Assembly (NCBI GenBank): GCA_051876105.1 | Contig: JBJEHN010000106.1 | Coordinates: 1 to 55,930, forward strand | From: Coriobacteriales bacterium | GTDB taxonomy: Bacteria; Actinomycetota; Coriobacteriia; Coriobacteriales; QAMH01 | Reading direction: 5' to 3' | Length of the DNA: 55,930 nt | Shown: positions 3,724 through 25,021 of the stretch, piece by piece | How the letters are laid out: each line of letters starts with the position of its first letter | Position numbering within the stretch: position 1 is the first letter of the stretch | The notes under the pieces: model-generated | The model's input: only the letters and a program-made list of their open reading frames with translations | Told to the model about the DNA's origin: nothing | Database searches by the model: none | Made by a program: the position numbers and the translations under genes

Positions 3724-3725
3724 GG

Positions 3726-6355: not shown

Positions 6356-6405
6356 GGTTTGAGCTCGGCAAACGCCTCCAGTGGGACGTCCGGCCCAAAC
6401 GAGGA

Positions 6406-7839: not shown

Positions 7840-7867
7840 GATGCAGAACGCAGCGAGCGTCAGGCCC

Positions 7868-8067: not shown

Positions 8068-8117
8068 AGCGGGACCAGGGCGCGGGCGGCTGCACGCGCC
8101 ACGCGCTGCACGGTGGT

Positions 8118-8324: not shown

Positions 8325-8404
8325 CGCACGCTCCTTTCCTCGATACCCCGATTCTTCACGCAAACCCAGCTGTGAACATCCCCCACACCATATGCATATG
8401 CGGC

Positions 8405-8423
8405 CTCATCATCCTAGTATGAG
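8405..8423. promoter_or_regulatory. 19-bp imperfect palindrome (shared operator-like motif)
   Basis: CTCATCATCCTAGTATGAG upstream of the small gene and LuxR gene. Confidence 0.45.
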
Positions 8424-8462
8424 CCCCTTGACCTGCGCTTTTACCCCAGTGCTAGTACGCAG

Positions 8463-8508
8463 AAAAAACGGCAGGGCCGGCTTGTGGTTAGAGGGGGCCG
8501 GCCCTGCC
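8463..8508 (-). terminator. Intrinsic terminator after MFS paralog B
   Basis: GGCAGGGCCGG/CCGGCCCTGCC stem followed by a T6 tract on the minus strand. Confidence 0.7.
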
Positions 8509-8581
8509 TTCTGGCGCGCAGCGGGGGAAGGATCGTGCGCGCAAGATGAGTGCGCTACCGCATGACGTGCGGCGCGCGGTG

Positions 8582-9922
8582 TTACTTGTGGTTCTCTTCC
8601 TCCATGCTCAAGGGCTTGTCCTTGGGCTTGGGGTTGATGAACAGCGCCGCGATGAGCATCACCACGGAAAGCGGGATGATGGTGAGCAGGCAGGCGTCGA
8701 GGAAGCTGTGCCCGCCGTCGATCAAGCCGCCATAGATGGGGCTGAAGCAGTTGCCGATGCACTGCGCGAACTGCAGCACTGCCATGCCCATGGTGGCCGC
8801 CATGGCGGACTGGTTCATGATGGTGGGAGCCAGGGGCCTCAGGCCGCCGCCACCCGCGCCGCCGCAGATGCCCATGAGGACGATGCCCACCCACAGCAGG
8901 GTGCTCGAGCCGCTCTGGAACATCAGGTAGAAGCACAGCACGTAGGAGACAGCCACGAAGGCCGGCATGAGCCTCTTGAACTTGAGCGGCAGCTTGTTGG
9001 TGATGGCGCCACCCAAGGGGTTGGCCACCAGCGAGATGGCAGTGACCACGGAAAGGCCCAGGGCCGCCGTCTGCTCCGGATAGCCGTAACCGCCGGCATC
9101 AACCGGCGTTTGTAGGAAGACCGGCAGGTAGGTGTTCACGATGCCCGTCTGGCCGGCGATGAAGACCAAGAAGACCACGAAGAGCAGCCAGATGTTCTTG
9201 TTCTTGAGCAGGGCCAGGCACTCGCCGATGTTGTTCTCGACGTTGTAGCTAGCGCCTTCGCCTTCCGGCACCTTGTAGAAGATGTTGAACAGGATCAGCG
9301 CCACAGCCGCGAAGATGATCACAAACCAGAACACGCCCTGCCAGCCAAAGCTCGCGGCGATGCTGGGGGTGACCAGCGCGTCGAGCGTGATGGAGAGCGG
9401 CACCCAGCAGCACCACAGGCCGAGCATGACGCCTCGCGTCTTGTCCGGGAACCACAGGGTGATCAGAGTTGGCGCGGAGACACCCACCAGGCCGATGCCC
9501 AGGCCCTCGATGAAGCGGCCGATGTAGAGCGCCGTGATGTTGGTGCCAGCCAAAACGGGGATCAGGCCGCCGATAATCACGCCCAGGGTGGCGATGGTGA
9601 TGGTCCAGCGCAGGCCCAGCTTGCGGCAGATGAACGCCGCCGGGAAGGCCAGCACGATGCCGATGAGCGAAACACAGGTCATGAGCCAGCCAAAGCCGGC
9701 ACCGTCGAGCATGAAGCCGCCCTCAGGGCTGATACCGGGGATGAAGATGAAATACGTGGGGATGTTCACCAGCTTGAACTGGCCCAGCGGGGCCGCAAAG
9801 CTCACGAGGAAGGTGACGATCCAGATGACCCATGCGTAGCGCGGGGTCTTTTCCTCATAGCGGTTGATGGGGCTTTCGGCATAGGGCCGGGGTTGTTTCA
9901 GTACAGCACTGTCTTTTTCCAT
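8582..9922 (-). CDS. MFS transporter (paralog B)
   Basis: Same motifs and long identical stretches as 1234..2583. Confidence 0.9.
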   Translation of the reverse strand: MEKDSAVLKQPRPYAESPINRYEEKTPRYAWVIWIVTFLVSFAAPLGQFKLVNIPTYFIFIPGISPEGGFMLDGAGFGWLMTCVSLIGIVLAFPAAFICRKLGLRWTITIATLGVIIGGLIPVLAGTNITALYIGRFIEGLGIGLVGVSAPTLITLWFPDKTRGVMLGLWCCWVPLSITLDALVTPSIAASFGWQGVFWFVIIFAAVALILFNIFYKVPEGEGASYNVENNIGECLALLKNKNIWLLFVVFLVFIAGQTGIVNTYLPVFLQTPVDAGGYGYPEQTAALGLSVVTAISLVANPLGGAITNKLPLKFKRLMPAFVAVSYVLCFYLMFQSGSSTLLWVGIVLMGICGGAGGGGLRPLAPTIMNQSAMAATMGMAVLQFAQCIGNCFSPIYGGLIDGGHSFLDACLLTIIPLSVVMLIAALFINPKPKDKPLSMEEENHK

Positions 9923-10099
9923 GATGGTACTTTCTCTTGGAATCGCTTCTCAGATACAGTCATGTGCGAGTAACGAGCTGGGCTCGCACTCCCGCCCGCA
10001 ACGCGGGAGCAAACAGTGGCCATATCACCGCCTCTCTAAATCGAGCGACGCGCAATACCGCGCGGAGGCTATGGTCAACCTCCCCGCGGCAGCTGCCCC

Positions 10100-10663
10100 C
10101 TAGCGGCAGCAAGGCTCCTCTTCGAAGGGAACGGGGTCGTTTTCGACCTCCCATTCCTCGAAGATCACCGTGTTGTGGAACTTGTAAACGCCGTAGATGC
10201 CCGTGAACTTCAAACCGGCGCACTTGAAAGTGCCGCCTATGGAGGTCACGAACTCCGCAGCCCTCGTGTTGAAGCCCTTGCTGGGGAAGACATAGAAGTC
10301 CGCCACGGTATCTTTGCTGCCCAAGGGAGCGATGAAGATGCCGGAGCCGAACTCAACGGGGATGCCCTGGGTCTTCAGGCGCATGTTGGGGATGGCGATC
10401 TTGGGCTCGAAGCGGTCTACCCACTTGCGGTGCGCGAGCTTTGCCCACGCCGCCCAGACGTCGGTCTCCTTCATCGCATCGTCTGCAAAAAGGGCGTCGA
10501 AGTACTCGTTGTAGGTGCTCGCGTTTTGCGCGTAGACCTCGTAACCAGGGCGGAACTCCCCTGCCAGGGTCACGAAGAGGAAGAGCTTCTCGAGCTCGAC
10601 CCGCTTGCGCGGCGATGCGGCCTGGATGCTCTCATTGAGTTGCTTTGCGTTCATGGTGCTCAC
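10100..10663 (-). CDS. Hypothetical soluble protein
   Basis: GAGGTG RBS, host-like codon usage, natural composition; no motif recognised. Confidence 0.7.
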   Translation of the reverse strand: MSTMNAKQLNESIQAASPRKRVELEKLFLFVTLAGEFRPGYEVYAQNASTYNEYFDALFADDAMKETDVWAAWAKLAHRKWVDRFEPKIAIPNMRLKTQGIPVEFGSGIFIAPLGSKDTVADFYVFPSKGFNTRAAEFVTSIGGTFKCAGLKFTGIYGVYKFHNTVIFEEWEVENDPVPFEEEPCCR

Positions 10664-10745
10664 TCACCTCTTGTGCTGGGATTGCAGGGCGCAGTACCCA
10701 CGCCCCGGTGCAGCTGGGGCCGAACAGGATGACGTGGGGGGGATA

Positions 10746-10780
10746 GCTGGCGGGAGGAAGTGCTGCAACCTCCCGCCAGC
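10746..10780. terminator. Hairpin after Mo enzyme 2 operon
   Basis: GCTGGCGGGAGG/CCTCCCGCCAGC 12-bp stem. Confidence 0.55.
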
Positions 10781-10818
10781 GTGGTTCTAGGCAGCGGCGC
10801 TAGCCGCAAACGGCGCGC

Positions 10819-11178
10819 TTAAGCGCAGGGGGGAACCCAGAGGTACTGCCAAGGCTTGGCCTCGAGGTCCTTTGCGAGCTCCTCAACCGGGCCGAACTTC
10901 ATGCACTTGGCCTGGCAGTGGTACACGCAGGTAGGCTGCTTGCCTTCCTTCAAGCGGTTCTCGCACAGGTCGCAGATCTTGGAGAACGCGGGGATGAAGT
11001 CGTAGACGTAGTTGTCGGTCTCGTTGCCCTCGGCGTCCTTGATGGGCCAGGGGCCGTTCTGCATCAGCTTGACGCCCCACTGGCCGAGCGGGAGCTCATG
11101 CTCGGACTGGCAGGCCACCTCGCAGCTGTAGCAACCCGTGCAGTACTGGTAATCGACGAGAATTCCGTTGCGTGCCAT
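10819..11178 (-). CDS. Small 4Fe-4S subunit of Mo enzyme 2
   Basis: MARNGILVDYQYCTGCYSCEVAC...CDLC...CVYHCQAKC; TAATG coupling with the catalytic gene. Confidence 0.9.
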   Translation of the reverse strand: MARNGILVDYQYCTGCYSCEVACQSEHELPLGQWGVKLMQNGPWPIKDAEGNETDNYVYDFIPAFSKICDLCENRLKEGKQPTCVYHCQAKCMKFGPVEELAKDLEAKPWQYLWVPPCA

Positions 11179-13568
11179 TAGAGCTCCTCCTCCTTGCAGC
11201 GGTAGATCTTGCACAGGGTGCACTTAAGGTCTGCACCAAAGCCGGTCTTGCCGGGCTTGTTGGCCAGCAGCTGGTTGATGTTGGACTGGCGGAAGCCGTA
11301 CAGGCAGGGCTCGGCGCCGTCCTGCTCGGGGAACCACCAGCCGTGCTGTGCGGCGATGGTGCCCTCGTGGACCTCGTAGGTCACGCGTGCGCGCTGGCGT
11401 GCGCGGCCGCGGTGGTTCTCCATCCACACCCAGTCGCCCTCGCAGATGTTGTGCTTGGCGGCATCGCGCGGGTGGATCTGAACCCAGGGGTCCGGGGTGA
11501 GCTGGCGCAGATAGGGGATCTGGCGATGCTCGGAGTGGAAGAAGGAGGTGGTGCGGGCGCCGGTGATCATGATCATCGGGTAGTCCTCATAGAGGTCCGG
11601 GGTGGTCACAGGGCCGATGCCGGGCTCCTCGATGTAGGGCAGCGGGTCGTAGTCGAAGGCCTCGAACAGCGTGGAGTAGAACTCGACGCGGCCGGTGGGG
11701 GTGTTGAAGCCGGGCTGGCCGTCGGAGCGCATGAGGCCCTTCTCGTACTTCTTGTACTCGTACTTCTGGTAGGCCGGGCCGTGCTCCATCAGCTCGCGGA
11801 AGGTCATGCCCGAGGGCTTGACGATCTCGTCGTAGACCTCGTCCTCGGTAGCCCACGGCCAGCAGTTCTGCTCCAGCGGGCGGCCGATGGCCTTCTTGAA
11901 CTCGTCGTCGCGGTCGAAGAACTGGGAGAGCTCGCGGTTGATCTCGCAGTCAGACTTTGCCTCGCCCTGGGTGGCGCAGCCGCCGGTGATGGCGGAGAGG
12001 AAGTAGTAGTGCGCGCGGACGGAGTGCTTCTCTGCCCAGGTCTGAACGGGCAGGACGATGTCTGCGCAAGCCTGGATGGTGGGGGTCATGAAGATGTCGC
12101 ACGCGGCGATGAACTCAGGCTTCTTCATGGCCTTACACCAGCGGTCGACCTCGCAGCTCATGCAGGCGATGCCGTTGGAGGTCTGGATCCAGACGCCCTT
12201 CACGAGGCCCTGCTCCATGAACTCGAGGCACATGTCCGGCATAGCCTGGGTGAGGCCGTAGCGGTACATGGGGAATTCCTTCCAGCCAACGCGCTTCTTC
12301 TGGGTCTCCTCGGTGATGAGGTCGTAGATGCCCCAAGCGCCTGCGGAGGGCTGGTCGACGCCCATGGGGGACGCGGTGTAGCACATGCCACCGGGCACAT
12401 CGAGGTTGCCGGTGATGGTCCACAGAGCGGCGATAGCAGCGGCGCAGGGAGTGCCCTGGGACTGCATGTCGACAGCCAGACCCCACACGACGTTAGCGGG
12501 CTTGGAAGTGGCGAACAGGCGGGCAGCGGCGATGATCTTCTCCTTGGGAACCCAGGTCATCTCCTCGACCTGCTCGAGGGAGAGCTCGCGGGCGCGCTCG
12601 GCCAGCTCCTCGAAGCCGTAGGTCCAGTTGTCGACGAAGCCATGATCGTAGAGGTCCTCGTCGACGATGACCTTGATCATCGCCAGGGCGAGGGCGGTGT
12701 CGGTGCCGGGGCGCAGCTGCAGGTGGATGTCTGCGTGCGCTGCCAACCAGGTGACGCGGGGCTCGACGGAGATGAGCTTGCAGCCGAGCTTCATGGCGTC
12801 CGTGACCCAGTGGCCCATGAAGAAGTCCGGGTTGGAGATGGTGGGGTTGCAGCCCCAGACGATGGTGCACTCAGGGCAGGTCCACTCGGGATCGTCGTAG
12901 CGCAGCGGGCTGAACTGGGCGAAGTCGGCGATGAGCATGCCGCCGTAGGTCATGATCATCAGGGACAGGCGGGGCAGGTAGCAGGCGGTACCGGACAGGA
13001 AGCCGTACTCGTTGGGGCTACCCATGGTGTTGACCATACGGCCGACCTGCCACTGGTTGTCACGGGCGGTGCCGCGCAGGCCGTGGATGGAGTCGCCGCC
13101 GTAGGTCATAGCGATGCGGCGGAACTCCTTGTAGCAGGTCTCCAGGGCCTCGTCCCAGGAGATGCGGGTCCACTTGTTCTCGCCGCGCTCGCCAGCGCGC
13201 TTCATGGGGTACAGGATGCGGTCCGGGTGGAACTCGACCTGCTTGAAAGCCAGGCAGCGGGGGCACAGGGCGCCGCGGTTGTAGGGGTCGTCCGGGTCGC
13301 CTTCGAGCTTGATGAACTTGCCGGTCTCCTTGTCGGAGTAGATCAGGACGCCGCAGCCCTCATGGCAGCCGGGGGCAGACCAGACGGAGGTGCGGGTGAC
13401 GGTCATGCCGTCTTCCTCGTACTGCCACTCGCCAGGGTGCTTCCAGCGAGGGTCGATCACCTGAGCCTGGCCAGCACCGAAATTGAACTGGTTCTCCTCT
13501 TTGGAGTTACCGATATCGTTGCGGTCGACGCCGTCGATAGTGGTCTCCATGGGCTCTTTCTCAGCCAT
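11178..13568 (-). CDS. Molybdopterin oxidoreductase 2, catechol dehydroxylase-like catalytic subunit
   Basis: WSAPGCHEGCG, GALCPRC, SGTACYLPR, TPTGRVE, FHSEHRQ, HGWWFPE; start set at MAEKEP after a GAGGG RBS; no Tat signal. Confidence 0.9.
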   Translation of the reverse strand: MAEKEPMETTIDGVDRNDIGNSKEENQFNFGAGQAQVIDPRWKHPGEWQYEEDGMTVTRTSVWSAPGCHEGCGVLIYSDKETGKFIKLEGDPDDPYNRGALCPRCLAFKQVEFHPDRILYPMKRAGERGENKWTRISWDEALETCYKEFRRIAMTYGGDSIHGLRGTARDNQWQVGRMVNTMGSPNEYGFLSGTACYLPRLSLMIMTYGGMLIADFAQFSPLRYDDPEWTCPECTIVWGCNPTISNPDFFMGHWVTDAMKLGCKLISVEPRVTWLAAHADIHLQLRPGTDTALALAMIKVIVDEDLYDHGFVDNWTYGFEELAERARELSLEQVEEMTWVPKEKIIAAARLFATSKPANVVWGLAVDMQSQGTPCAAAIAALWTITGNLDVPGGMCYTASPMGVDQPSAGAWGIYDLITEETQKKRVGWKEFPMYRYGLTQAMPDMCLEFMEQGLVKGVWIQTSNGIACMSCEVDRWCKAMKKPEFIAACDIFMTPTIQACADIVLPVQTWAEKHSVRAHYYFLSAITGGCATQGEAKSDCEINRELSQFFDRDDEFKKAIGRPLEQNCWPWATEDEVYDEIVKPSGMTFRELMEHGPAYQKYEYKKYEKGLMRSDGQPGFNTPTGRVEFYSTLFEAFDYDPLPYIEEPGIGPVTTPDLYEDYPMIMITGARTTSFFHSEHRQIPYLRQLTPDPWVQIHPRDAAKHNICEGDWVWMENHRGRARQRARVTYEVHEGTIAAQHGWWFPEQDGAEPCLYGFRQSNINQLLANKPGKTGFGADLKCTLCKIYRCKEEEL

Positions 13569-13758
13569 AGTTCCCTCTTTCTCTCTCTTGGGAACGGCGC
13601 CTCTCCACGGCGCGCCCCAAAGCGGGATGGAGGAAATCACCTCGGATAGCACTGCCAGGTATCTTCCCCAGAGCAGCATTCCCCCAGCCCTCGACAGAGT
13701 GGATTTAAGCAGGGCCGAGTAATCCCTATCATCCCGCGATAGGTGCGTAATCCTGCAA

Positions 13759-13777
13759 ATCAGTACGCTGGTATGAG
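13759..13777. promoter_or_regulatory. 19-bp imperfect palindrome (shared operator-like motif)
   Basis: ATCAGTACGCTGGTATGAG (reverse complement CTCATACCAGCGTACTGAT) upstream of Mo enzyme 2. Confidence 0.45.
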
Positions 13778-13833
13778 ACGGAGTATGAGGCCATTGAGCT
13801 GGGAAAAGAGGGGTTTGAAGAAGCAGTGTCCCT

Positions 13834-13971
13834 GTCATTTCGACCGGAGGCGCGAAGCGCCGGAGTGGAGAATCTCAGGTTGAGCCGCAAGACCACCTCT
13901 CCCGACTCCCGGACCCCCGGCTCCACCCGAGATTTCTCCACGCGCTCGCTTACGCTCGCTTGGTTGATGAC
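13834..13971. repeat. REP-like palindromic repeat, divergent subfamily (copy 3)
   Basis: GTCATTTCGACCGGAG...GTGGAGAATCTC / GAGATTTCTCCAC...GATGAC; same architecture as the other copies. Confidence 0.7.
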
Positions 13972-14017
13972 GTGTTGAGGGGGCGCCGCTGACGAGGACG
14001 TGAGGGGCAGGTACCCT

Positions 14018-15535
14018 CTATTCGCTGCGGGTGAAGCGGGCGAGCTCTTCTTCGCTCAGGGGGTACTCCTCGATGAAGTCCATGAGCTTTTGCTGGGAGT
14101 GGATGTCGAACTTGCGGTAGATGCTGTAGATATGACTCTTGACGGTGTGTGGGGAGATGCAGAGCTTTTCCTGCAGGTAGGCGGCATTGCGGCCGCGCGC
14201 CAGGTAGCCCAGGATGTCGCTTTCGCGCGGGGAGAGCTTGTAGAGCTCTGCCGCGGCGGCGCACTTGGCATCGAAGATCTCGCTTTCAGAAAGCTCGACG
14301 GAGACGATCTGCTTTTCCCCGCTTTCTCCCATGAGCTTGGAGACAGCGTTTTGGTCGTGATGGTGGACGTCTGGCATGCAGAGCACGAAGACAAGCACCA
14401 GGCAGACAGCCATAGCCAGATGCATATAGCCGAAGATTTCTGAGTGGGCATCGGAGTAGAGGGTAATGCAGGAAGACAGCAGCCAGCCCAGGAAGAAGCC
14501 GATCGCGCGGAAGGAGAGGCGCAACGGCAGCTGGCGGAAGGCGGGCGCACACCAGCCGTTCTCCTTGGTCTTGCGCACCATGAGAGCGTAGTTTATCGCC
14601 ATGATGCCCGCCCAAGAGGCGACCATCAGGCCCACGATCACCAGCTGCAGGTGGTCTGGCGCGAAGGGCATGGTAATGCAGGTGAGCACTGTGAGGAAGA
14701 GCAGGGCGCGTTGGGCGACGGTGATGCCAACCTCCTTGCCAGCCAGGGTGAGCACGACCATGAGCGCCGCGCCGACAAGCACGAAGAGCAGGCCGATGAT
14801 GAGGGTCTTGCCGCCGCAGTTGAACAGGTAGACGAAGGTCGAGCCGAAGACCATGCCGTAGGCAACCATGAGGGGCTCGATCTCTCTGGTGAACTTCCAC
14901 TTGGGGGCTGTGAGCTCCTTGAGAGCGCATTTGTCGTTGGCGGGGCAGCGCGGGCTGATGTAGTGCACGAGCATGAGCGAGCCAAGGCCAAACGCGCCGG
15001 TGAACACGAACTGCAGCAGCGAGGGCATGGCCATGACGAGGGCGAAGAGCGCTGCGCCAGCGAGCATCGAGAAGCTGGTGAAGCGGTACTCCTCCCCGCT
15101 TTCCATGCGGCTGCAGATGTCGAGCCACAGGACCACGCCGCCAGCGCCGGCGATGCCGGTGAGGAGATTGGTGACGCAGTTGAGGGCCTCAGGCAGGTTG
15201 ATGCCAAAGCTCTCGGCGCAGGCGCAGCAGGGGGACAGCAGCATGCACACGCCGATGCCGATGAGCACCGGAGGCTCGAAGATGTTGAACGAGGCCCTGC
15301 GCCCTGCGACGTGGAAGCCCAAGTAACCAACCACAGTGCCCAAGAACACGAAGCTCTGGACCACATCCTTGTTGCCCAGGGGCAGGTCGCGCAGAATCTC
15401 AGAGTAGAACCAGTAGAAGCACACGAGCATCCAAGCGAAGTAGAGGGCAAAGCCCACCATACCCAACAACTCGATAGCGGTCAGATCAGACTTGCTTGTT
15501 CGATCTTTCTCCCCGTTGCCGGCGGACTCAGCCAT
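14018..15535 (-). CDS. Transmembrane one-component LuxR-family regulator
   Basis: Multi-TM domain plus LSPRESDILGYLARGRNAAYLQEKLCISPHTVKSHIYSIYRK HTH; start MAESAG after a GAGGGGGAG RBS. Confidence 0.9.
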   Translation of the reverse strand: MAESAGNGEKDRTSKSDLTAIELLGMVGFALYFAWMLVCFYWFYSEILRDLPLGNKDVVQSFVFLGTVVGYLGFHVAGRRASFNIFEPPVLIGIGVCMLLSPCCACAESFGINLPEALNCVTNLLTGIAGAGGVVLWLDICSRMESGEEYRFTSFSMLAGAALFALVMAMPSLLQFVFTGAFGLGSLMLVHYISPRCPANDKCALKELTAPKWKFTREIEPLMVAYGMVFGSTFVYLFNCGGKTLIIGLLFVLVGAALMVVLTLAGKEVGITVAQRALLFLTVLTCITMPFAPDHLQLVIVGLMVASWAGIMAINYALMVRKTKENGWCAPAFRQLPLRLSFRAIGFFLGWLLSSCITLYSDAHSEIFGYMHLAMAVCLVLVFVLCMPDVHHHDQNAVSKLMGESGEKQIVSVELSESEIFDAKCAAAAELYKLSPRESDILGYLARGRNAAYLQEKLCISPHTVKSHIYSIYRKFDIHSQQKLMDFIEEYPLSEEELARFTRSE

Positions 15536-15715
15536 TGAAATCTCCCCCTCGAACACTTGTGGCGTTTGTCCTTTTGGCGTCCTCCAAACGGTGCACAAAA
15601 CGCAGAATGTCTAGCTGACTTAGTGTAACCCTACAAAGATTCTACGTAAGCAAACTTATTATCTATTCTCTATAACGTTTATTTATCGATAGGGTATTTC
15701 AAATCGCGTGTGATA

Positions 15716-16219
15716 TTAATGCTGCCCCGGAGGTTTGATCCCCAGGCGCTGCGAAACGCTGGCTAGATCTGAAAAGCCCAGCTCCTTGCAAGCAGACGCC
15801 ACACCCGGTGTGGCGCCGGTGGCGTCATCGTCCATACCGTCGATCTTCTTGAGGACGGCAAAGCATGGGCGCTTGGCAGAAGCATCGTCTACCGGCGTCT
15901 GCCTGGCGTTCGCAGCTGCACTCGACTCACCCGGCAGCGCACCGCACGCCGGTGCCGGCGGGTTGTTGCCCACGTCAAGCAGCTGCGAGGCAGACGCCAT
16001 CGAGGTCGCAGAGCTCACGCCGTCTTCTCCCCCACCGCCGCCGAGCACCAGGCCCCAGGCCTCCATGCACTTGCCGCACTCCAGGCATACCTCGCAGCGC
16101 TTGTGAACGGTGAACTGCGAATTCCCGGCCTTGGACTCAGATTCGTCCTCAAAGCACCTGCCACAGAAGCGACACACCTTGCAGCGCGTGCCTGCCTTCC
16201 TCTGGGGTTGTTCGCTCAT
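15716..16219 (-). CDS. Cys-rich protein with two CxxCxxCxxC motifs and two flavinylation-like motifs
   Basis: CKVCRFCGRC, CEVCLECGKC, DGVSSAT, DDATGAT; GAGGGGAGGG RBS before ATG 16219. Confidence 0.7.
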   Translation of the reverse strand: MSEQPQRKAGTRCKVCRFCGRCFEDESESKAGNSQFTVHKRCEVCLECGKCMEAWGLVLGGGGGEDGVSSATSMASASQLLDVGNNPPAPACGALPGESSAAANARQTPVDDASAKRPCFAVLKKIDGMDDDATGATPGVASACKELGFSDLASVSQRLGIKPPGQH

Positions 16220-16333
16220 CTCTTCCCTCCCCTCTGGAAAACGTGGCAGAGCGCTCCGGGGATTGTTCGACCCGGAGCGCTCTGTCTTCACAGGGTTGCG
16301 GTTGCCCTCGGCACACCGCTCGGCGCATAACGC

Positions 16334-17794
16334 CTAGTGTTGCTCGGGCTTGCCAGCGGGAGCCTCGCCTGCAGCTGCAGCCTTAGGCTTGCTGGGCTTG
16401 ACGAGAACAGAGAGGACACAGCCCACGACGCCGATGGGGACCAGGGCCATGAAAGCCAGGCTCGGATCGACCATGATGCCGTTGGCAGCAGCCTCAGCAG
16501 CGGCCTGGCCGATTGCAGGGCCGAAGTCGGCCGGGGTGCCGCCAGCTGCCAGGACGGCCTGCTTGGCCTCGATGGCAACGTTGGAGGCTGCGGTGAGGCC
16601 CTCGTTGAAGGGGGCGAGCACATAGGAGGTCGCGATCTGGCCGGCGTACTGGCCGAGGGTCAGCAGCGAGAGGCCGAAGGCGACTGCGGTCTGGCCGCCC
16701 TTGAACACGAAGGTGGGGACCAGCGGACGGCAGCATGCGTTGAGCATCATGTTGCCCAGGCAGAAGAAGATCACGTAGGGGATGAAGAACTCGGCCTTGA
16801 AGGAGAGTGCAGAGCACACGGTGAGGCCGATGATGCCCACCACGACGCAGATGAACTTCTTGTCCTTGGGAGTCTTGTCCAGGATGAGGCCGCCGATGGG
16901 GGCCAGGGCGCCGCATGCGCAGATCAGGCCGCCGATGACGCCAGCGGTGGTGGCATCCCAGCCAAGGCCGCCGAGCAGGGTCGGGGTCTGCAGCCAGGTC
17001 TTGAGGTACTGAGAGAACGCATAGTTCATGTAGTTGAAGATGGCGAACATGAAGATGAGGCACCAGAGCTGGCGGCTCTTGAAGAACTTGAGGACGTCTT
17101 TGAGCGGCTTGCGCTCAGGGGAGACCTGGGAGCGCTCGTCCTCGCGCGGGCCGCGGAAGACCACGGCGAAGATGATGGCGACGACGACAACGAGGGCAAC
17201 CCACACCAGCTGCAGGGTGCCGACGTTCTGGCCGACGAGGTTGTAGATGCCGTCGTTGACGAAGTTTGAGCAGAAGATGCCGATGGGTGCCCAGGTAGAC
17301 CAGATGGCCATGGCGCGGCCGCGGGTTGCGTCGGGGAACCACAGGGACACGCAGGTGGGGCCAGCGACGATGGTGGTAGCCAGGCCCAGGCCCAGGACGA
17401 AGCGGCCCACCAGGAAGGCGTAGAAGTTGCCGCCCACGGTGAAGGCGCTGATCGCGCCGCCGACGATGGCCAGGGCCAGGCCGATGAGCGTGGTGACCTT
17501 GGCACCGAACTTGCGCACCAGGATGGTGGTGGGCAGGGCCATGATCAGGGCGCCGATGGGCACCAGGCCCATGACGTTGGAAAGCAGGGCATAGTTGGCC
17601 GGGTTCTGGAAGAACGGGTTGTTAGCCGTCAGCCAGCCCTTGAACACAGGGAAGGTCAGGCCAGGCAGCCACATCCAGATGAACACGATGCTGACCGCGG
17701 CCAGCAGGGACACAACGAGGCAGGGCCATGCGTAAGACGGGGTCTTTTCGGCCGGCTTAGCGGGGGCGCCTGCAGCTGCTGCAGTTGAAGTCAT
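16334..17794 (-). CDS. MFS transporter
   Basis: About 12 TM, 'GRFVLGLG', 'WFPDATRGRAMAIW'; start MTSTAA after a GAGGGG RBS. Confidence 0.9.
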   Translation of the reverse strand: MTSTAAAAGAPAKPAEKTPSYAWPCLVVSLLAAVSIVFIWMWLPGLTFPVFKGWLTANNPFFQNPANYALLSNVMGLVPIGALIMALPTTILVRKFGAKVTTLIGLALAIVGGAISAFTVGGNFYAFLVGRFVLGLGLATTIVAGPTCVSLWFPDATRGRAMAIWSTWAPIGIFCSNFVNDGIYNLVGQNVGTLQLVWVALVVVVAIIFAVVFRGPREDERSQVSPERKPLKDVLKFFKSRQLWCLIFMFAIFNYMNYAFSQYLKTWLQTPTLLGGLGWDATTAGVIGGLICACGALAPIGGLILDKTPKDKKFICVVVGIIGLTVCSALSFKAEFFIPYVIFFCLGNMMLNACCRPLVPTFVFKGGQTAVAFGLSLLTLGQYAGQIATSYVLAPFNEGLTAASNVAIEAKQAVLAAGGTPADFGPAIGQAAAEAAANGIMVDPSLAFMALVPIGVVGCVLSVLVKPSKPKAAAAGEAPAGKPEQH

Positions 17795-17912
17795 TGTCTT
17801 TCCCCTCTTTTGACTCGGGAAGGGGCACCGCCCTCCTTGCACGTGGCGGACCCCACACGCCGGCTGGTATCCCGCCAGCCGGCGTGTCTCATTAGTAAGT
17901 AGCGATCAACAA

Positions 17913-18968
17913 CTAGATGTTGAAGATCTTTGCGGCGTTGCCGCCGAGCATCAGGGCCTTGTCCTCATCGGCGATCTCGAGCGCGTTGATGGACTCGACG
18001 GAGCGGGCCATCCACTCGTAGAACACGGGGAAGGAAGAGCCCAGGAGCAGGTGATCGGCGCCACAGGTCTTGACGGCGCACTCGAGGACGTTCTTGCCCC
18101 AGCTCATGGGATGGGTGAGGTCGAAGTAGATGTTGTTGGCCAGGTAGCGGTCGTAGGCCTCGCGGTCCACGTTGGTGGCCAGGCGGTTCATGGCCTCCTT
18201 CTTCTTGGTGGACTTGTGCGGAGCCAGGATCTCCTGCAGGCCGAACCAGTTGCCGCCCATCATGGTGTGGATGAACTTGAGGTTGGGGAACTCGTCGAAC
18301 ATACCAGAGTAGATCTCGCGGCCGACTGCGGAGGCCTGGACGTGGATGCGGCCAAGCTCGCGGCGCAGGACGGTGTAGTCGACAAAGTTGCCGTAGGCGT
18401 TCTGACCGGGGGTGTGGTGGATCACAGCGGGGATCTTCTTGTCGTTCAGGACCTTGAGGTAAGGCTTGAACAGCGGGTCATCCAGGAAGCGGTCGCCGTA
18501 GCAGCAAGCGAACTGAACGCCCACGGCACCCATGTCGATGCAACGCTCAAGCTCGGCGATGTCCTCCTTGCGACCGTACGGGGGCAGGACTGCGTTAAAG
18601 CGCAGGCGGCCCTCAGACTGGCGGCACATCTCGGCTGCCTGGTCGTTGACGATCTTGCAGATGTCCAGGGGCAGCCACTCCTGCCACACGGGCATGCGGA
18701 GCAGGGCGACGTCGACGCCGGCCTCATCCATGGCACCGATCTTGGCCTCGAGGGTGTAGTCGCCCTCGACGTAGTTGAGAATCTGCTTGCCCTCGGGATA
18801 CTCCAGGATCATCTGCTCCTTGGCGCCGTCCGGGGTCTTGCCCAGGTAAGCCTTCATGCCAAAGCCCAGCGGAGCGGAGTACAGGAAGCCGTTCAGGACC
18901 TTCTCGTTGGTGAAGAGGTCGGTGGGCAGCATGTGCATGTTGATGTCAATTACGCGGTTCTCGCTCAT
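17913..18968 (-). CDS. Amidohydrolase family 2 protein (decarboxylase/hydratase-like)
   Basis: 'MDEAGVDVA', 'PAVIHH', 'FDEFPNLKFIHTMMGG', 'GADHLLLGSSFP', 'LGGNAAKIF'. Confidence 0.85.
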   Translation of the reverse strand: MSENRVIDINMHMLPTDLFTNEKVLNGFLYSAPLGFGMKAYLGKTPDGAKEQMILEYPEGKQILNYVEGDYTLEAKIGAMDEAGVDVALLRMPVWQEWLPLDICKIVNDQAAEMCRQSEGRLRFNAVLPPYGRKEDIAELERCIDMGAVGVQFACCYGDRFLDDPLFKPYLKVLNDKKIPAVIHHTPGQNAYGNFVDYTVLRRELGRIHVQASAVGREIYSGMFDEFPNLKFIHTMMGGNWFGLQEILAPHKSTKKKEAMNRLATNVDREAYDRYLANNIYFDLTHPMSWGKNVLECAVKTCGADHLLLGSSFPVFYEWMARSVESINALEIADEDKALMLGGNAAKIFNI

Positions 18969-19297: not shown

Positions 19298-19642
19298 TTA
19301 GGCCTCCTTGATGGGGACCAGGATCATCCCCGGCTTGTCGATCTTCGCGGCCAGCTCCTCCACGCTGCCGTACTCCAGGCACTGGGCCTGGCAGTGCTGC
19401 ACGCAGCTGGGGCGCTTGCCCTTGGCCACGCGGGACTCGCACAGGTCGCACCAGCGGGTGAACTGGGGGATGAAGTCGAGCTGCCAGTCCTTCCTGCCCT
19501 CCGTGATCTGCAGGGGGCCCAGCTGGGTGATGGTGATGCCGTACTTGGTCTCGTCGTACTCCTTCTCCTGCTGGCAGGCGACAACACAGGCCTCGCAGCC
19601 GGAGCAGTAGTTGACGTCGCAGAGAACTCCCTTGATGGTCAT
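19298..19642 (-). CDS. Small 4Fe-4S subunit of Mo enzyme 3
   Basis: MTIKGVLCDVNYCSGCEACVVAC...CDLC...CVQHCQAQC; GAGGAG RBS. Confidence 0.9.
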   Translation of the reverse strand: MTIKGVLCDVNYCSGCEACVVACQQEKEYDETKYGITITQLGPLQITEGRKDWQLDFIPQFTRWCDLCESRVAKGKRPSCVQHCQAQCLEYGSVEELAAKIDKPGMILVPIKEA

Positions 19643-19668: not shown

Positions 19669-22089
19669 TTACGCCCTGTAGATCTTGCACATCATGGCCT
19701 TGTAGTTGGCGCCGAAGCCGGACACGCCCGCGTCGAAGGGCACGAGGTTGTTGATGTTGGACTCGAAGGTGCCGAACAGGCCCTTCTTCTCGTCCTCGAG
19801 GTTCTCCTCCGCCTGGTCCTTGCGCTCGGGGAACCACCAGCCGTGCTCGCACTGCATGACGCGCGGGTCGTAGGTGGGGTCGTAGCAGGCCTTGTACTTG
19901 CACTTGCCGTGCCTGTTCTCGAGCCACATCCAGTCGCCGTCGGCGATGCCGTGCTCAGCGGCGGTCTCGGGGTGGATGTGGCACAGCGGGTCGGGGTGCA
20001 GGGCGCGCAGCTTCCTCATCTGGCGCTGCTCGGAGTGGAAGAAGTGCGGGATGCGCTGGCCGCTGGTGACGATGTAGGGGTACTCCCCCAGGTCCTCGGG
20101 GGCGGAGTAGGGGCTCTCGGCGGGCTCGACGTAGGAGGGCAGCGGGTTGAGGCCGGACCACTGGGTGTGGTGGAAGACCATCGAGTAGACCTCGGCGCGG
20201 CCGGTCTCGGTCTGGAAGCCCAGGCCGCCGTCAGCGCGCAGCAGGCCCTTCTCGTACTTGCGGTACTCGAACTTGGGGTACTTCCAGACCTTCTCCTTGA
20301 GCTCCTCCCAGGTGAAGCCGCCGTCCTCGAGCGCGTAGTCCCACATCTCCTCGACGGAGTCCCAGGGCCATGCGATGTCGGCGTTCTCCGGGCGGATGGC
20401 CTCGTTGAGGCGCTTGCCCAGCTCCAGGAAGATCGTGTTGTCGGCCTTGGTGTCGCCCACCGGCTCGATGGCCTTGGTGATGGCGGAGATGCGGTAGGGG
20501 TTCAGGCCGCCGAAGCCGTTGCGCTCGGAGAAGGTGGCGGCGGGCAGGACCACGTCCGCCAGGGCCATCATGGTCGGGGTCATGAACAGGTCCTCGACCA
20601 CGGCGAACTCCAGCGTCTTGTACCACTCGAGCTGCCTTTCTGCCTGGGCGCCCATGGTGGCCAGGAAGTTGTTGGTGGCGAAGTAGGCCGCGCGGATGGG
20701 GAACTCGCCGGCGAGCCACTTCTCGATGGTGGCGTTGGAGGAGAGGTTCTTGAAGCCGACGGCGAACATCGGGTAGCGCTCGATGCCGATGCGCTTCTTG
20801 TGCTCCTCCTCGGTGAGCAGCTCGTCGTAGCCCCAGGTGCCGGTCCAGTTGGGCTGCTCGATGCCCCAGCACGCGCGGCCGATCACGTTGCCGCCGGGGA
20901 CGTCGAGGTTGCCGGTGATGCACCACATGGCGACCAGGGAGTGGGCCGCCTGCTGGCCGCCGGTCTGCTGGTCGAGCGCCACGCCCCACTGGATGGCGGC
21001 GGGCTTGGCGGTGGCGTAGGTGCGCGCCACGCGGACGATGTCCTCCTTGTCGACCCAGCAGCGCTCGGCCAGCTCGTCGAGGTCGTACTCGCCCACGCGC
21101 TCGCACAGGGCGTCGAGGCCGTAGACCCACTTGTCGCAGAAGTCGGCGTCGTAGAGCCTCTCGTCGCAGATGACCTTGAGCATGGCCATGGCCAGGGCGC
21201 CGTCGCCGCCGGGGCGCACGCGCAGCCAGTCCTCGCCGGCGCGCGCGGCGATCCAGGTGAGGTTGGGGTCGACGACCGCGACCCTCATGCCGCGCTTCAT
21301 CAGGTCCATGATCCAGTGGCCGTAGAAGCCGTCGGCGTTGGAGTAGAAGGGCTGGTGGCCCCACACGATGCAGTACTCGGGCACCGCGTACTCGGGGTCG
21401 TCGTAGCGCTTGGGCAGGAACTGCGAGCAGTCCATGACGCAGGCGTCGCCGATCATGCACGCCATGGAGGCGATGCGGGGCAGGTAGCAGGAGTTGCCCG
21501 CGAAGTAGGGGACGCCCTCGTTGGGCGAGCCGATGGAGGCGTTGACGCGGGTGATCTGGTGGATGTCGCGGCCGGTGCCCTGGCAGCAGGCGATGGTGTC
21601 TGCGCCGTAGGTGTCCGCGACGCGCTTGAACTCGCGGACGATGATGTCGTAGGCCTCGTCCCAGCTGATGCGCTCGAAGCGGTCCTTGCCGCGGTCCTCG
21701 CGCTTGCGCTTCATGGGGTAGAGCAGGCGCTCGTCGTGGTAGATGTAGTCCGGGATGCACAGGCAGCGGCTGCACAGGCGGCCCTGGTTGTAGGGGTCCT
21801 CGGGGTCGCCCTCGACCTTGACGACCTTGCCGTCCTTCACGTAGGTGAGGATGCCGCACACGTTGTGGCAACCCGGGGCGGAGCGCGCCGTGGAGCGGAT
21901 GACGGTCATGCCGTCCTCCTCCCACGTCCAGGGGACGTCGGGGGTCTCGGCGCAGGGGGTGGGCTCGTAGCCGTACTCGGACTTGAGGGGCAGGCGCGTG
22001 CCGCGCTTGTACTCGCCCGGGGTGTAGCTGGGGTGGTTGGGGTCCAGCTGTCCGGGGGTGAAGGCGGCTGCTGTCTTTGCTTCTGCCAT
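19669..22089 (-). CDS. Molybdopterin oxidoreductase 3, catechol dehydroxylase-like catalytic subunit
   Basis: RSAPGCHNVCG, GRLCSRC, AGNSCYLPR, FHSEQRQ, HGWWFPE; start MAEAKT after an AGGAGG RBS; no Tat signal. Confidence 0.9.
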   Translation of the reverse strand: MAEAKTAAAFTPGQLDPNHPSYTPGEYKRGTRLPLKSEYGYEPTPCAETPDVPWTWEEDGMTVIRSTARSAPGCHNVCGILTYVKDGKVVKVEGDPEDPYNQGRLCSRCLCIPDYIYHDERLLYPMKRKREDRGKDRFERISWDEAYDIIVREFKRVADTYGADTIACCQGTGRDIHQITRVNASIGSPNEGVPYFAGNSCYLPRIASMACMIGDACVMDCSQFLPKRYDDPEYAVPEYCIVWGHQPFYSNADGFYGHWIMDLMKRGMRVAVVDPNLTWIAARAGEDWLRVRPGGDGALAMAMLKVICDERLYDADFCDKWVYGLDALCERVGEYDLDELAERCWVDKEDIVRVARTYATAKPAAIQWGVALDQQTGGQQAAHSLVAMWCITGNLDVPGGNVIGRACWGIEQPNWTGTWGYDELLTEEEHKKRIGIERYPMFAVGFKNLSSNATIEKWLAGEFPIRAAYFATNNFLATMGAQAERQLEWYKTLEFAVVEDLFMTPTMMALADVVLPAATFSERNGFGGLNPYRISAITKAIEPVGDTKADNTIFLELGKRLNEAIRPENADIAWPWDSVEEMWDYALEDGGFTWEELKEKVWKYPKFEYRKYEKGLLRADGGLGFQTETGRAEVYSMVFHHTQWSGLNPLPSYVEPAESPYSAPEDLGEYPYIVTSGQRIPHFFHSEQRQMRKLRALHPDPLCHIHPETAAEHGIADGDWMWLENRHGKCKYKACYDPTYDPRVMQCEHGWWFPERKDQAEENLEDEKKGLFGTFESNINNLVPFDAGVSGFGANYKAMMCKIYRA

Positions 22090-22236
22090 TCGTTCCTCCT
22101 TCGTGGTCTTGCGACTCTCTTCTCTCTCGCACCGGCCCTTGTAGGCCGGCCCTGCGATCTGCATCTGTGCCTCGCCCTCTGCTTGGCCCAGACTGCAAAA
22201 ATCGTCATCGCAGAGACTACGGGCGCTCATGTCAAG

Positions 22237-22317
22237 CACCCCCCGCTTGGGTGATGAAGAAGGCGAAATCAGCCCTGTTGAGTGAGCGCTGTTAGGCCCT
22301 CATACCAACGGTCTGAG
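22237..22317. promoter_or_regulatory. Three phased 19-bp operator-like boxes
   Basis: CACCCCCCGCTTGGGTGAT (22237), ATCAGCCCTGTTGAGTGAG (22268), CTCATACCAACGGTCTGAG (22299); starts exactly 31 bp apart. Confidence 0.55.
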
Positions 22318-22414: not shown

Positions 22415-23713
22415 CTAGTCCTCCTTGACGGTGACCACGGCGTTGGCGAGGACGTGGTCGGCGGCCTTGCGGCGCTCTGCAGTTTCACGCAGGACGAACC
22501 TGCGGCCCGTGGCCTCGAGCTGCGCCCTGGTCTGCGCCGGGTCAGCCTGAGGGTTGAGCTCGCGCGCTGCCTTGAGGTAGTCCTCATCTTCAAGCGTGAG
22601 CTTCTCGTGAGCGAAGACGCTGTCGAGCACGTAGCCTTGCACCAGCTGCTCGCGGCACTGCACCATCATCATCACGGAGAACTGCTGCTGGCCGCCGTTT
22701 TGCTCCACATAGTCCTTGTAGCTCACGCCCTGCTTGGAAAGCTGCTGGTCGAGCTCGCGCATGAGGTTGTCGCGCATGGCCTCGTAGGCTTCGTCCGGGA
22801 TGCGGCCCTCAAAGCGGTCCTCCAGCTCGAAGATGCACAGCTGGCGGCACTGGGCGTCGTAGGCCTCGCGGCTCTGGGCCTCGAGGCTCTTGCGGATATC
22901 CGCCTTGAGCTCGTCGACGCTCTTGAACACGGGCATGTTCGCAGCGAGCCAGCTGTTGGTGATGGCGGGGATGCACTCGACCTGGATCTCGATCACAGTG
23001 GCTGTGGTCTCGACCGTGGTGGTGGTCTCGTTGCCGGCCATGTCAACGTCCGGGCCCTCGAAGGTGAAGGTCTTGGTCTCGCCCGGCTTCATGCCGATGA
23101 TTTGCTCGTCGAAGCCCTGGGGCATGTAGCCCTGGCCGGTGACGTAGGTGCGCGCGGCACTGCTCAGGCCCGCGTTGCGCTTGCCGTTCTCAAAGCTCTC
23201 CATTTCGAGCAAGACGGCGTCGCCGCTGCGGACCTCGTGCTGCTCGGCCGCGCGGGTGTAGGTAGTGGAGCGCTTGGCGAGCTCTTCGAGCTGGCGCTCA
23301 ACCAGGCTCTCGTCCACCTTGAACGGCGGAACGGTGATATGGACGGGCTCGTAGGAGCTGAGCACGTAGTTGGGCTTGGGCAGCAGCTCCAGGGTGAAGC
23401 TCGCCTCCGCGCCGCGGCGCAGCGGGGTGGCGCTCTTGACCTCGGGCGGGAAGGCCGGCATCAGACCGCTGCGGTCGATGGCGTAGGGGATCAGGCACTC
23501 GAGTGCGGAGTCGCGCACGACGGAGTCGAGGTCCTTGATACCTAGCTTCTCCTCGACGATCTGGTTGACGGTCTTGCCCTTCTCGGGACGCAGGCCCGCG
23601 CCGTTCACAAACTGGAGGTAGGCGTTTGCAAAGGCGTCCTCAACCTCTTTGGCAGTTGCGCGCGCATCGAGCTGGATGCGCCCCTCGGGTAACTTCTTCT
23701 CCTTGATCTTCAC
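22415..23713 (-). CDS. tig: Trigger factor-like chaperone (paralog)
   Basis: FKBP-like 'GQGYMPQGFDEQIIGMKPGETKTF', 'FKSVDELKADIRKSLE' and C-domain; lacks the canonical GFRxGxxP loop. Confidence 0.8.
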   Translation of the reverse strand: MKIKEKKLPEGRIQLDARATAKEVEDAFANAYLQFVNGAGLRPEKGKTVNQIVEEKLGIKDLDSVVRDSALECLIPYAIDRSGLMPAFPPEVKSATPLRRGAEASFTLELLPKPNYVLSSYEPVHITVPPFKVDESLVERQLEELAKRSTTYTRAAEQHEVRSGDAVLLEMESFENGKRNAGLSSAARTYVTGQGYMPQGFDEQIIGMKPGETKTFTFEGPDVDMAGNETTTTVETTATVIEIQVECIPAITNSWLAANMPVFKSVDELKADIRKSLEAQSREAYDAQCRQLCIFELEDRFEGRIPDEAYEAMRDNLMRELDQQLSKQGVSYKDYVEQNGGQQQFSVMMMVQCREQLVQGYVLDSVFAHEKLTLEDEDYLKAARELNPQADPAQTRAQLEATGRRFVLRETAERRKAADHVLANAVVTVKED

Positions 23714-24052: not shown

Positions 24053-25021
24053 CTACTCGGCGGTGGTGGTGAGGGTGCCCTCTTGGTCGATGAAGACGGC
24101 GAGTTGGATGCCTTCACAGGAGCGGGCGAAGGCGAGACCCTCCTGGACCCCCAGGGCGCACAGCGTGGTGGAGTAGCCGTCTGCCACAAAGCTGCTGGCA
24201 GCCACGATAGTCGCGCTCAATGCGTCTGGGGTGATGGGCCAGCCGGTGCGCGGGTTGAGGATGTGGGAGTAGCGCGTGCCGTCTGGCGCGGTGAAGCAGC
24301 GCTCCGTGAGGCCGCTGGTGACAACGGAGCCCTCGAAGAGCTGCACGGAGGCCAGGGTCTGCCCTGGGGTGCGGGGGTCGCGGATGCCGATTGAGAAGGG
24401 TGTGCCGTCTGGACGGCCGCCGCGCACGGCGATGTTGCCGCCGAGGTTCACCACGAAGCTGCACAGCCCGGCGGCGGCCAGCTGCTCGCAGAGGCGGTCT
24501 GCGATGTAGCCCTTGGCGGTGCCGCCCACGTCGACCGAAGCCTGCGGGTCGGCCAGCTGCGCCCAGCGCTGCCCTGGGGCGCCGCCCAGCTGCAGCTGCT
24601 CCCACCCCACATGCTGCAGGGCAGCGCTGATGCGGGCCTGGCTGGGGAAGCGGCCGCTTTTGAAGTCCCAGAGCGCCAAGACCGGGCCGAGCGTGATGTC
24701 GAAGCACCCCTGCGAGCTGCGGCAGAAGCCGACGCTGCCCTCGAGGAGGCGGAAACTGTCCTCGCTGAGCTGCACGCGCGCGCCGCCGGCTGCGTTGAGG
24801 AGCGAGACCTCGCTGTGCGGCAGGGTCTTTGAGAAGAGGCGCTCAAAGCGGCGGCAGGTGTCTCGTGCGGCGAGCAGCGCGGGCTCCACTCGCTCGCGCG
24901 GGCCGTAGGCGCTCAAGCGCGCGAAGGTGTTGAAGGCAAGGAACTCGCAGCGGTGCGGCGCGCCCGGGGCGTCTGAGGGCTCGAAGCTCCAGCACTCTTC
25001 GAACGGAATTGCGTCAAGCAC
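24053..25021 (-). CDS. apbE: FAD:protein FMN transferase (ApbE family), no signal peptide
   Basis: 'FDITLGP', 'DVGGTAKGYIAD', 'NLGGNI', 'SVVTSG', 'HILNPRTGWP', 'ADGYSTT'. Confidence 0.9.
   Translation of the reverse strand: MLDAIPFEECWSFEPSDAPGAPHRCEFLAFNTFARLSAYGPRERVEPALLAARDTCRRFERLFSKTLPHSEVSLLNAAGGARVQLSEDSFRLLEGSVGFCRSSQGCFDITLGPVLALWDFKSGRFPSQARISAALQHVGWEQLQLGGAPGQRWAQLADPQASVDVGGTAKGYIADRLCEQLAAAGLCSFVVNLGGNIAVRGGRPDGTPFSIGIRDPRTPGQTLASVQLFEGSVVTSGLTERCFTAPDGTRYSHILNPRTGWPITPDALSATIVAASSFVADGYSTTLCALGVQEGLAFARSCEGIQLAVFIDQEGTLTTTAE

Follow-up and report, generated by a model that had tools for sequence, protein, structure and literature searches.

The 55,930 nt of contig JBJEHN010000106.1 from a Coriobacteriales bacterium (assembly GCA_051876105.1), hereafter the window, carry at positions 15716-16219 of the minus strand a small open reading frame (ORF) for a 167-aa protein with two flavinylation-type motifs. 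The best functional reading of this protein is that of a redox mediator of the ellagic-acid pathway. Its covalent flavinylation by a cytoplasmic ApbE flavin transferase is likely. For the full statement, namely a flavinylated redox mediator which feeds electrons to the 4Fe-4S subunit of a dehydroxylase and holds an optional metal centre, we would put the chance at a little under even.

The small protein

The ORF starts with the ATG at 16219, with GGAGGG ahead of it. An earlier note on this DNA had described the product as a 167-aa protein without signal peptide or transmembrane segment, with two CxxCxxCxxC runs and the motifs DGVSSAT and DDATGAT. The ORF and its translation were reproduced from the window, and both runs and both motifs were recovered at the same coordinates (Table 1). 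The maximal 19-residue Kyte-Doolittle mean of the protein is just 0.91, compared with 3.04 for the adjoining transporter of the major facilitator superfamily (MFS); the protein therefore has no membrane segment or signal peptide, in agreement with the note, and is predicted to be cytoplasmic. We found no Pfam family in the protein at E ≤ 0.01, the ESM Atlas search with it gave no usable match, and the scan of 15400-16500 for promoters and terminators detected nothing.

The AlphaFold2 (AF2) models of the window protein and of its homologue from Gordonibacter sp. 28C reached a predicted local distance difference test (pLDDT) of 60.7 and 59.8, respectively, and are both poor. Only short helices are present in the two models, beginning directly after each acceptor Thr, and the C-terminal module is the sole part that reaches a pLDDT of about 80. 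The protein is thus modelled as largely disordered.

Conserved motifs and variable cysteine runs

A word-indexed search yielded 179 candidates, of which 51 reached E ≤ 0.01, and 49 of these 51 were aligned (alignment A1). The mean column identity of A1 is 39 %, and D66, T72, D131, T134-V140, C144, G148 and the C-terminal PPG are nonetheless invariant. The earlier note had made its proposal depend on the conservation of both motifs among homologues, and this holds, as the acceptor residues T72 and T137 are the same in all 49 sequences. Moreover, a Cys located seven residues past the acceptor Thr is invariant in alignments A1 and A2. An exhaustive profile search of a representative library resulted in 1779 matches at E ≤ 0.001, and the best 150 were examined. 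These included 21 small relatives matched in a single stretch. The other 129 were long proteins (368-2963 aa) matched in 5-32 stretches each, solely at profile positions about 3-58 in the Cys region, and were rejected as products of Cys-repeat bias.

The census of the family comprises 67 collected members, which range from 84 to 211 aa. The sequence TGATPGV is present in 65 of them and the remaining two end before the C-terminal module. Two motifs were found in 51 members, three in 10 and one in 6, so that 61 of the 67 possess at least two. The number of Cys runs is two in 51 members, one in seven and none in nine. Run 2 is the one missing in the one-run forms of genomes G014, G017 and G018, and the Cys-less forms of G011, G030 and G032 hold the same position in the cluster, some of them with an extra motif instead. 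The homologue in Gordonibacter sp. 28C (L045:9776-10114) has 112 aa, no Cys run and three motifs, DAVTGAT, DAVTAAT and DAATGAT. The motif-plus-helix modules form the constant core of the family, and foremost among them is the C-terminal D-x-x-TGATPGV-x-x-AC...GIKPPG; the Cys runs are accessory, because they vary across the family while the motifs stay constant. We also looked for longer fused relatives using residues 60-167 and obtained none at E ≤ 0.001, which is weak evidence, as a fusion in genome G251 (see below) was found by other means.

The earlier note took the protein for an Fe-S carrier; the CxxCxxCxxC runs are indeed there, but Fe-S is not established, nor does it form the core of the protein, and the family has members with one run or none. 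The spacing is not the ferredoxin-type CxxCxxCxxxC(P), and the threshold of the Fer4 clan was not reached by any of 24 members, seven of which matched Fer4 below the cut-off (best E 0.073). A profile search of the PDB matched only eukaryotic C2H2 zinc-finger chains with a corresponding CxxCG[KR]xF spacing, and this homology was rejected because the small protein has no His ligands. We also considered a rubredoxin-like or zinc-ribbon reading of the runs, and no result of the analysis backs it.

Flavinylation motifs and ApbE

ApbE modifies the motif D-x-x-[S/T]-G-A-[S/T], in which the last residue is the acceptor and the seven residues suffice; changes of G to A or of A to V about halve the labelling, and cytosolic ApbEs exist, e.g. 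for the Klebsiella fumarate reductase (reviewed in PMC12052999). Motif 2 of the small protein, DDATGAT, is an exact fit, and motif 1, DGVSSAT, has S in place of G. The FMN_bind domains encoded by the same genome read DVVSSAT, DTISGAT, DAVSGAT and DTVSGAT, and the S-S-A-T form of motif 1 is thus also found in a true FMN_bind domain (DVVSSAT). The pattern D..[ST][GS]A[ST] and its looser form have no occurrence in the 8515 aa of 15 other window proteins. The cut-off of Pfam FMN_bind (PF04205), 22 bits, was not reached, and the window protein (P0001) gave no match even at E ≤ 5. Permissive matches of 11-16 bits were obtained for nine of the 24 members at profile positions about 38-68 of 77, and the same positions also contain the motif in the partial FMN_bind matches of this genome. 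The PDB profile search did not match NqrC, RnfG or any other flavinylated protein.

A signal-less ApbE had been noticed 8 kb away in the same cluster, and we found it 7.8 kb from the small ORF. Its frame opens just about 30 residues ahead of the conserved F-x-A-F-N/D-T start of the domain and contains no hydrophobic stretch, the N-terminus being non-hydrophobic. The genome has two ApbE genes, this one and another on contig C92. The C92 ApbE (G000; L049, L051-L053) has a lipoprotein signal, RREF...LAGC, mid-way in a 754-aa open frame and lies beside three FMN_bind matches; together with the FMN_bind proteins it represents the usual extracytosolic flavinylation system.

A pattern scan of one genome per species gave 24 loci with the small gene. 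ApbE is present inside the fetched flanks of six of them, always signal-less, as well as in the window, in four different arrangements. We then compared the 33 genomes of the window's taxonomic family, which are related, so that the counts cannot be treated as independent. The small gene is present in 11 of these genomes, an orthologue of Eah (the Amidohydro_2 protein of Table 1) in 19 and ApbE in 22. Each of the 11 carriers of the small gene has Eah as well as ApbE; the ApbE lacks a signal in 10 carriers and is truncated by a contig end in the eleventh, which bears out the co-occurrence with signal-less ApbE that the earlier note proposed to check. Eight genomes have Eah without the small gene. 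Four of them hold complete clusters, in which the gap between the MFS and LuxR genes is just 257-467 nt; even a family search found no ApbE in G006, G007 and G009, and the only ApbE of G031 is exported. Among the remaining four, ApbE is absent from G026 and represented by just a fragment in G003, and the picture in G001 and G004 is ambiguous. The absences of the small gene are spread over at least four genera or sub-lineages. Outside this set, a signal-less ApbE was identified in four of five Gordonibacter/Adlercreutzia genomes checked (G037 is ambiguous), and the signal-less ApbE of Gordonibacter sp. 28C has an N-terminus similar to that of the window.

Association with the ellagic-acid cluster

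A cluster of genes (eam) has been linked to ellagic acid metabolism in Gordonibacter and Ellagibacter (PMC12771579). According to that 2025 paper, ellagic acid induces 13 genes of one cluster in strain 28C by a factor of over 1000; Eah carries out the opening and decarboxylation of ellagic acid, and Eadh1/2/3 strip hydroxyl groups. Methyl viologen and dithionite were used in the assays of the purified enzymes, and an expression system for G. urolithinfaciens is described there. Gordonibacter strains typically encode over 30 catechol-dehydroxylase homologues (PMC12771579). An earlier paper described the Gordonibacter-type dehydroxylase as without any signal for twin-arginine translocation (Tat), having a small 4Fe-4S partner, being probably soluble and lying beside MFS genes. 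The route by which H2 drives these dehydroxylases is stated as unresolved in a 2026 preprint.

All the components of the eam cluster (soluble molybdenum (Mo) dehydroxylase, 4Fe-4S subunit, Eah, MFS and LuxR) were identified in the window, with 80-89 % identity to the loci of Gordonibacter sp. 28C and G. pamelaeae, and the window cluster matches the published one. A run of genes on the same strand consists of a Mo enzyme, its 4Fe-4S subunit, the Amidohydro_2 protein, an MFS transporter and, as the last gene, the small ORF. This agrees with the earlier note, which had the small ORF closing the run begun at its Mo enzyme 3 and which did not list the 4Fe-4S subunit at 19298-19642. The open frame of Mo enzyme 3, of the type with molybdenum bis(pyranopterin guanine dinucleotide) (Mo-bisPGD), extends over 19669-22239, and its likely start is the Met at 22089. 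The Mo enzymes had been called anchor-less, and we too found no Tat signal or membrane anchor.

Table 1. Position of the small ORF, its sequence elements and the associated genes in the window
Feature	Position	Strand	Basis or remark
Small protein ORF (P0001), 167 aa	15716..16219, stop codon included	(-)	translation
Cys run 1, CKVCRFCGRC, C13-C22	16154..16183	(-)	near-invariant in alignment A1; absent from 9/67 members; Fer4 sub-threshold only
Cys run 2, CEVCLECGKC, C42-C51	16067..16096	(-)	C42, C45, C48, C51 invariant in A1
Flavinylation-type motif 1, DGVSSAT, D66-T72, predicted FMN acceptor T72	16004..16024	(-)	D66, T72 invariant, S69 near-invariant
Flavinylation-type motif 2, DDATGAT, D131-T137, predicted FMN acceptor T137	15809..15829	(-)	D131, T134-V140 invariant
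C-terminal module, DxxTGATPGV-x2-AC-x3-G ... GIKPPG, D131-H167	15719..15829	(-)	invariant columns in A1 and A2
MFS transporter, directly upstream of small ORF	16334..17842	(-)	Pfam MFS_1 E 2e-31
Amidohydro_2 protein	17913..18968	(-)	84% identity, orthologue of the decarboxylase-type gene named Eah in the Gordonibacter sp. 28C cluster
Small 4Fe-4S subunit of Mo enzyme 3, 114 aa	19298..19642	(-)	CxxCxxCxxxC and five more conserved Cys
Mo enzyme 3, soluble Mo-bisPGD catechol-dehydroxylase type	19669..22089	(-)	80-84% identity with the first Mo enzyme in the eam cluster of Gordonibacter sp. 28C
Signal-less ApbE flavin transferase	24053..25021	(-)	Pfam ApbE E 3e-74; 7.8 kb from small ORF
Membrane LuxR-type regulator, directly downstream of small ORF	14018..15598	(-)	GerE domain; conserved position
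Mo enzyme 2, second soluble Mo enzyme	11178..13568	(-)	87-89% identical to second Mo enzyme of Gordonibacter clusters
Small 4Fe-4S subunit of Mo enzyme 2	10819..11178	(-)	translation MARNGILVDYQYCTGCYSCEVAC...

The 24 loci come from Gordonibacter (including G. pamelaeae and strain 28C), Ellagibacter, Adlercreutzia and uncultured Eggerthellaceae and Coriobacteriales, and other eam-cluster genes are present in all 24. The clusters are made up of a Mo enzyme with its 4Fe-4S subunit, Amidohydro_2, MFS and LuxR genes, a second Mo enzyme with 4Fe-4S subunit and more MFS genes. The orthologue of Mo enzyme 3 was identified in 19 loci (79-94 % identity); contig or fetch ends truncate the remaining five. 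There is one copy of the small gene in the window genome, as there is in five of five Gordonibacter/Adlercreutzia genomes. Among 401 sampled genomes of the class it was detected in six, five of which represent one genus (5/5). Read as a general carrier for soluble Mo dehydroxylases, the earlier proposal does not stand against this, as the gene is single-copy and confined to the eam cluster. Within the cluster its presence is not constant either: it accompanies Eah in 11 of the 19 Eah-bearing genomes of the window's taxonomic family and is accessory, since complete eam clusters exist without it.

Literature searches, including term searches of PMC12771579, PMC8238504 and PMC11334425, returned no description of the protein, and the text of PMC12771579 contains no 'FMN', 'hypothetical' or 'unknown function' and a single, unrelated 'flavin'.

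Coverage in RNA libraries

Contigs of three RNA libraries from one study were placed on 16.5 kb of the Gordonibacter sp. 28C locus. Such contigs cannot prove a transcript or rank genes, and the result is therefore given as coverage in RNA libraries only. One contig of 10171 nt spans 5207-15377 of the locus, and another of 8042 nt spans 2101-10142, covering the Mo enzyme, both MFS genes and the small ORF to 28 nt past its stop. The mean word depth is 154-1860 over the cluster compared with 0-59 at 1-1100 and 0-13 at 15401-16483. DNA carry-over would be expected to give even coverage of the locus. Run X6 was left out, as it provided only pieces of 19-171 nt from contigs of other organisms. The earlier note would have given up its proposal for an ORF that is not expressed; what we found is that RNA-library contigs cover a homologue, the one of strain 28C.

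In the 28C locus (L045) two further genes come after the small gene, one for a 511-aa protein without Pfam family at 10224-11759 (+) and one for a class-V aminotransferase, cysteine-desulfurase-like, at 11953-13533 (+). Both are covered by the RNA-library contigs and neither is in the window's cluster.

Proposed role and competing explanations

We propose that the signal-less ApbE would attach FMN (flavin mononucleotide) covalently to T72 and T137, each acceptor Thr sitting in what may be a minimal remnant of FMN_bind, consisting of the motif and the following helix. The small protein would then be a tethered-flavin redox mediator, accessory to the cytoplasmic pathway from ellagic acid to urolithins. 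Most likely, electrons would pass from a cytoplasmic donor to the small protein and further to the 4Fe-4S subunit of the soluble alpha-beta catechol dehydroxylases, and the N-terminal Cys runs would bind an additional metal centre, optional in the family. The delivery of electrons to the dehydroxylase 4Fe-4S subunit is plausible; we infer the direction of the electrons and the partner more weakly than the flavinylation.

Several observations weigh against this proposal. A signal-less ApbE is also present in at least five genomes without the small gene (G005, G022-G025), and the ApbE is consequently not dedicated to the small protein. Pro occupies the 'A' position of motif 1 in 22 instances (SGPT). 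The Mo enzymes already have a 4Fe-4S subunit of their own, the small gene is missing from the four complete eam clusters described above, and both AF2 models are poor. The protein can be no general electron donor, because a single copy faces over 30 dehydroxylase homologues per Gordonibacter strain. The last two points concern the transporters. The nearest upstream gene on the same strand is an MFS gene in 23 of the 24 loci, across three cluster architectures, and in G251 the C-terminal module is fused to an MFS protein.

This fusion is located on contig C28 of G251, a Gordonibacter-like metagenome-assembled genome (L098, about 8204-10114 in locus orientation; the contig is shared with L048), where the C-terminal module (DTATGATPGVASAC...NIKPPGMA) continues in frame from the C-terminus of the upstream MFS protein. 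Compared with Gordonibacter sp. 28C and G. pamelaeae, about 400 nt have been lost here without a shift of frame, which created the fusion, and the DNA of the module differs from that of Gordonibacter mainly at third codon positions. As the module sits on the tail of a transporter, the fusion confirms the predicted cytoplasmic location, and as it retains only the C-terminal module, this module is the minimal unit.

The adjacency to MFS genes and the fusion fit a transporter-linked role at least as well. The flavinylated protein could be a partner of an MFS importer instead of the Mo enzyme, where, as a cytoplasmic flavin module close to the membrane, it would gate ellagic-acid uptake or couple it to the redox state of the cell, or would tether the pathway enzymes to the transporter. 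The gaps to the upstream MFS gene go down to 9-29 nt, and the third-position changes in the G251 module point the same way. However, the adjacency is partly expected with two or three MFS genes among about ten genes per cluster, the fusion was seen in just one genome, assembled from a metagenome, and in the g8-type clusters the small gene also directly precedes a Mo enzyme. We know of no flavin-dependent MFS precedent, and we consider this explanation unlikely as a whole.

It is similarly improbable that the protein is not flavinylated at all and that the D-x-x-[ST]-x-x-T stretches are structural or serve for docking in a Cys-rich Zn/Fe accessory, e.g. an assembly or regulatory factor. In line with this option, no Pfam family is above threshold, motif 1 often departs from the canonical G-A (SGPT, SHAT, SAAT), the Cys region is similar to knuckles of the CxxCG type and the models are disordered. 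Against it, the Cys runs vary and the motifs are constant, and some members gain a third motif on losing the Cys runs. Moreover, the small gene is absent from cluster-bearing genomes without ApbE, and ApbE is physically linked to it in seven loci.

Quite unlikely, in our view, is a flavinylated redox sensor or co-regulator for the adjoining membrane LuxR-type regulator, which would report on reducing power before the cluster is induced. In window-type, Ellagibacter-type and some other clusters the LuxR gene comes directly after the small gene, one RNA-library contig bridges the two genes, and the invariant Cys past the acceptor Thr would suit a sensor; however, the two genes lie several kb apart in g8-type clusters and in L043, L045 and L047, three of the four Gordonibacter loci, and clusters that lack the small gene still have LuxR genes. 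A protective role, in which the flavinylated protein would not feed the Mo enzymes but keep autoxidisable polyhydroxy intermediates such as ellagic acid and urolithin M5 reduced or stack the planar molecules on its tethered flavins, is in accord with a gene that is specific to the ellagic-acid cluster, was not found with other dehydroxylases and is dispensable in some clusters, but it is pure conjecture and we find it hard to credit.

Other features of the window

A trigger-factor paralogue (Trigger_N, FKBP_C, Trigger_C) at 22415-23713 (-) is located between the ApbE and Mo enzyme genes; it adjoins the Mo enzyme also in G030, G032 and G003, and may be a dedicated folding helper. Mo enzyme 2 and its 4Fe-4S subunit are followed by a 187-aa protein without Pfam family (10100-10663, (-)), which is at the same place in most of the related clusters examined, with 44-93 % identity. 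A third soluble Mo enzyme at 3726-6137 (-) has its own LuxR-type regulator, whose true frame is 6406-7839; the overlapping 438-aa ORF at 6563-7879 looks like an off-frame artefact. Another Mo enzyme, at 46757-49360 (-), is separate from these and lies near an NrfD-type membrane anchor (45289-46146); it seems to belong to a membrane-bound type, in contrast to the three Mo enzymes without an anchor.

A GGDEF protein and a PAS-GGDEF-EAL protein adjoin the ApbE gene (25445-28628, (-)). At 28615-30909 (-) a 408-aa FAD_binding_2 ORF, fumarate-reductase-like, overlaps ORFs of 300 and 201 aa without assigned family, and the gene may be frameshifted or split. A phage-type integrase is encoded at 38160-39668 (+), and at 50791-53853 (+) there is a hybrid histidine kinase with a PocR sensor and a receiver domain.

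Comparison with known systems and significance

The prevailing view places flavinylation by ApbE mainly outside the cytosol and links it to folded domains that bind flavin (PMC8238504, PMC12052999, PMC11334425). The substrates with FMN_bind, such as NqrC, RnfG and the NADH:fumarate reductase of Klebsiella pneumoniae, have the same motif as the small protein, with the acceptor Thr followed by a helix. The cytoplasmic fumarate reductase of K. pneumoniae has its own signal-less ApbE (PMC12052999), and so has the genome with the small gene. Unlike these substrates, the small protein has no FMN_bind fold, is free-standing instead of forming part of an enzyme, and is mostly disordered in the models. 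In the FMN_red group one or two flavinylation motifs likewise lie on an unstructured extension and not in an FMN_bind fold; there, however, the motifs join a folded flavin-binding domain that takes the FMN in cis (PMC11334425). The small protein has no such domain, so any flavin pocket would have to come in trans from a partner.

In the multi-flavinylated 'beads-on-a-string' proteins (eLife 2021, PMC8238504) there are several sites per chain, comparable to the varying one to three motifs of the small family, but these are extracytosolic chains of full FMN_bind domains, whereas the small protein is predicted to be cytoplasmic and lacks such domains. The engineered Flavin-tag shows that ApbE needs no more than a bare motif of seven residues, placed terminally or in a loop (PMC12052999), and this is what the small protein appears to offer. 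The Flavin-tag is an artificial label without a redox partner, and the small gene is natural, conserved and placed in a metabolic cluster. The 4Fe-4S subunits of dehydroxylases are also small Cys-rich proteins encoded together with a soluble Mo enzyme, but here the true subunit, with CxxCxxCxxxC, is a separate gene, and the CxxCxxCxxC runs of the small protein are dispensable. The small family differs from all these known systems in being cytoplasmic, free-standing and fold-less, with optional Cys runs, and in its tie to one metabolic cluster.

A bolder version of the proposal, which we hold to be rather doubtful, is a free-standing cytoplasmic 'flavin-on-a-string', in which a disordered carrier would plug its FMNs in trans into the dehydroxylase subunit, the transporter or the donor enzyme, in the manner of the swinging-arm acyl-carrier and lipoyl domains. 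If true, it would be the first such flavin carrier and the first ApbE substrate without its own flavin-binding fold. Cytoplasmic bare motifs on a disordered chain would then widen the substrate range of ApbE and provide a natural counterpart of the Flavin-tag. The small gene is a testable candidate for the electron supply of the soluble Gordonibacter-type dehydroxylases, which make the health-relevant urolithins, and the presence or absence of the small gene and of the cytoplasmic ApbE might help to explain differences in urolithin production among cluster-bearing strains.

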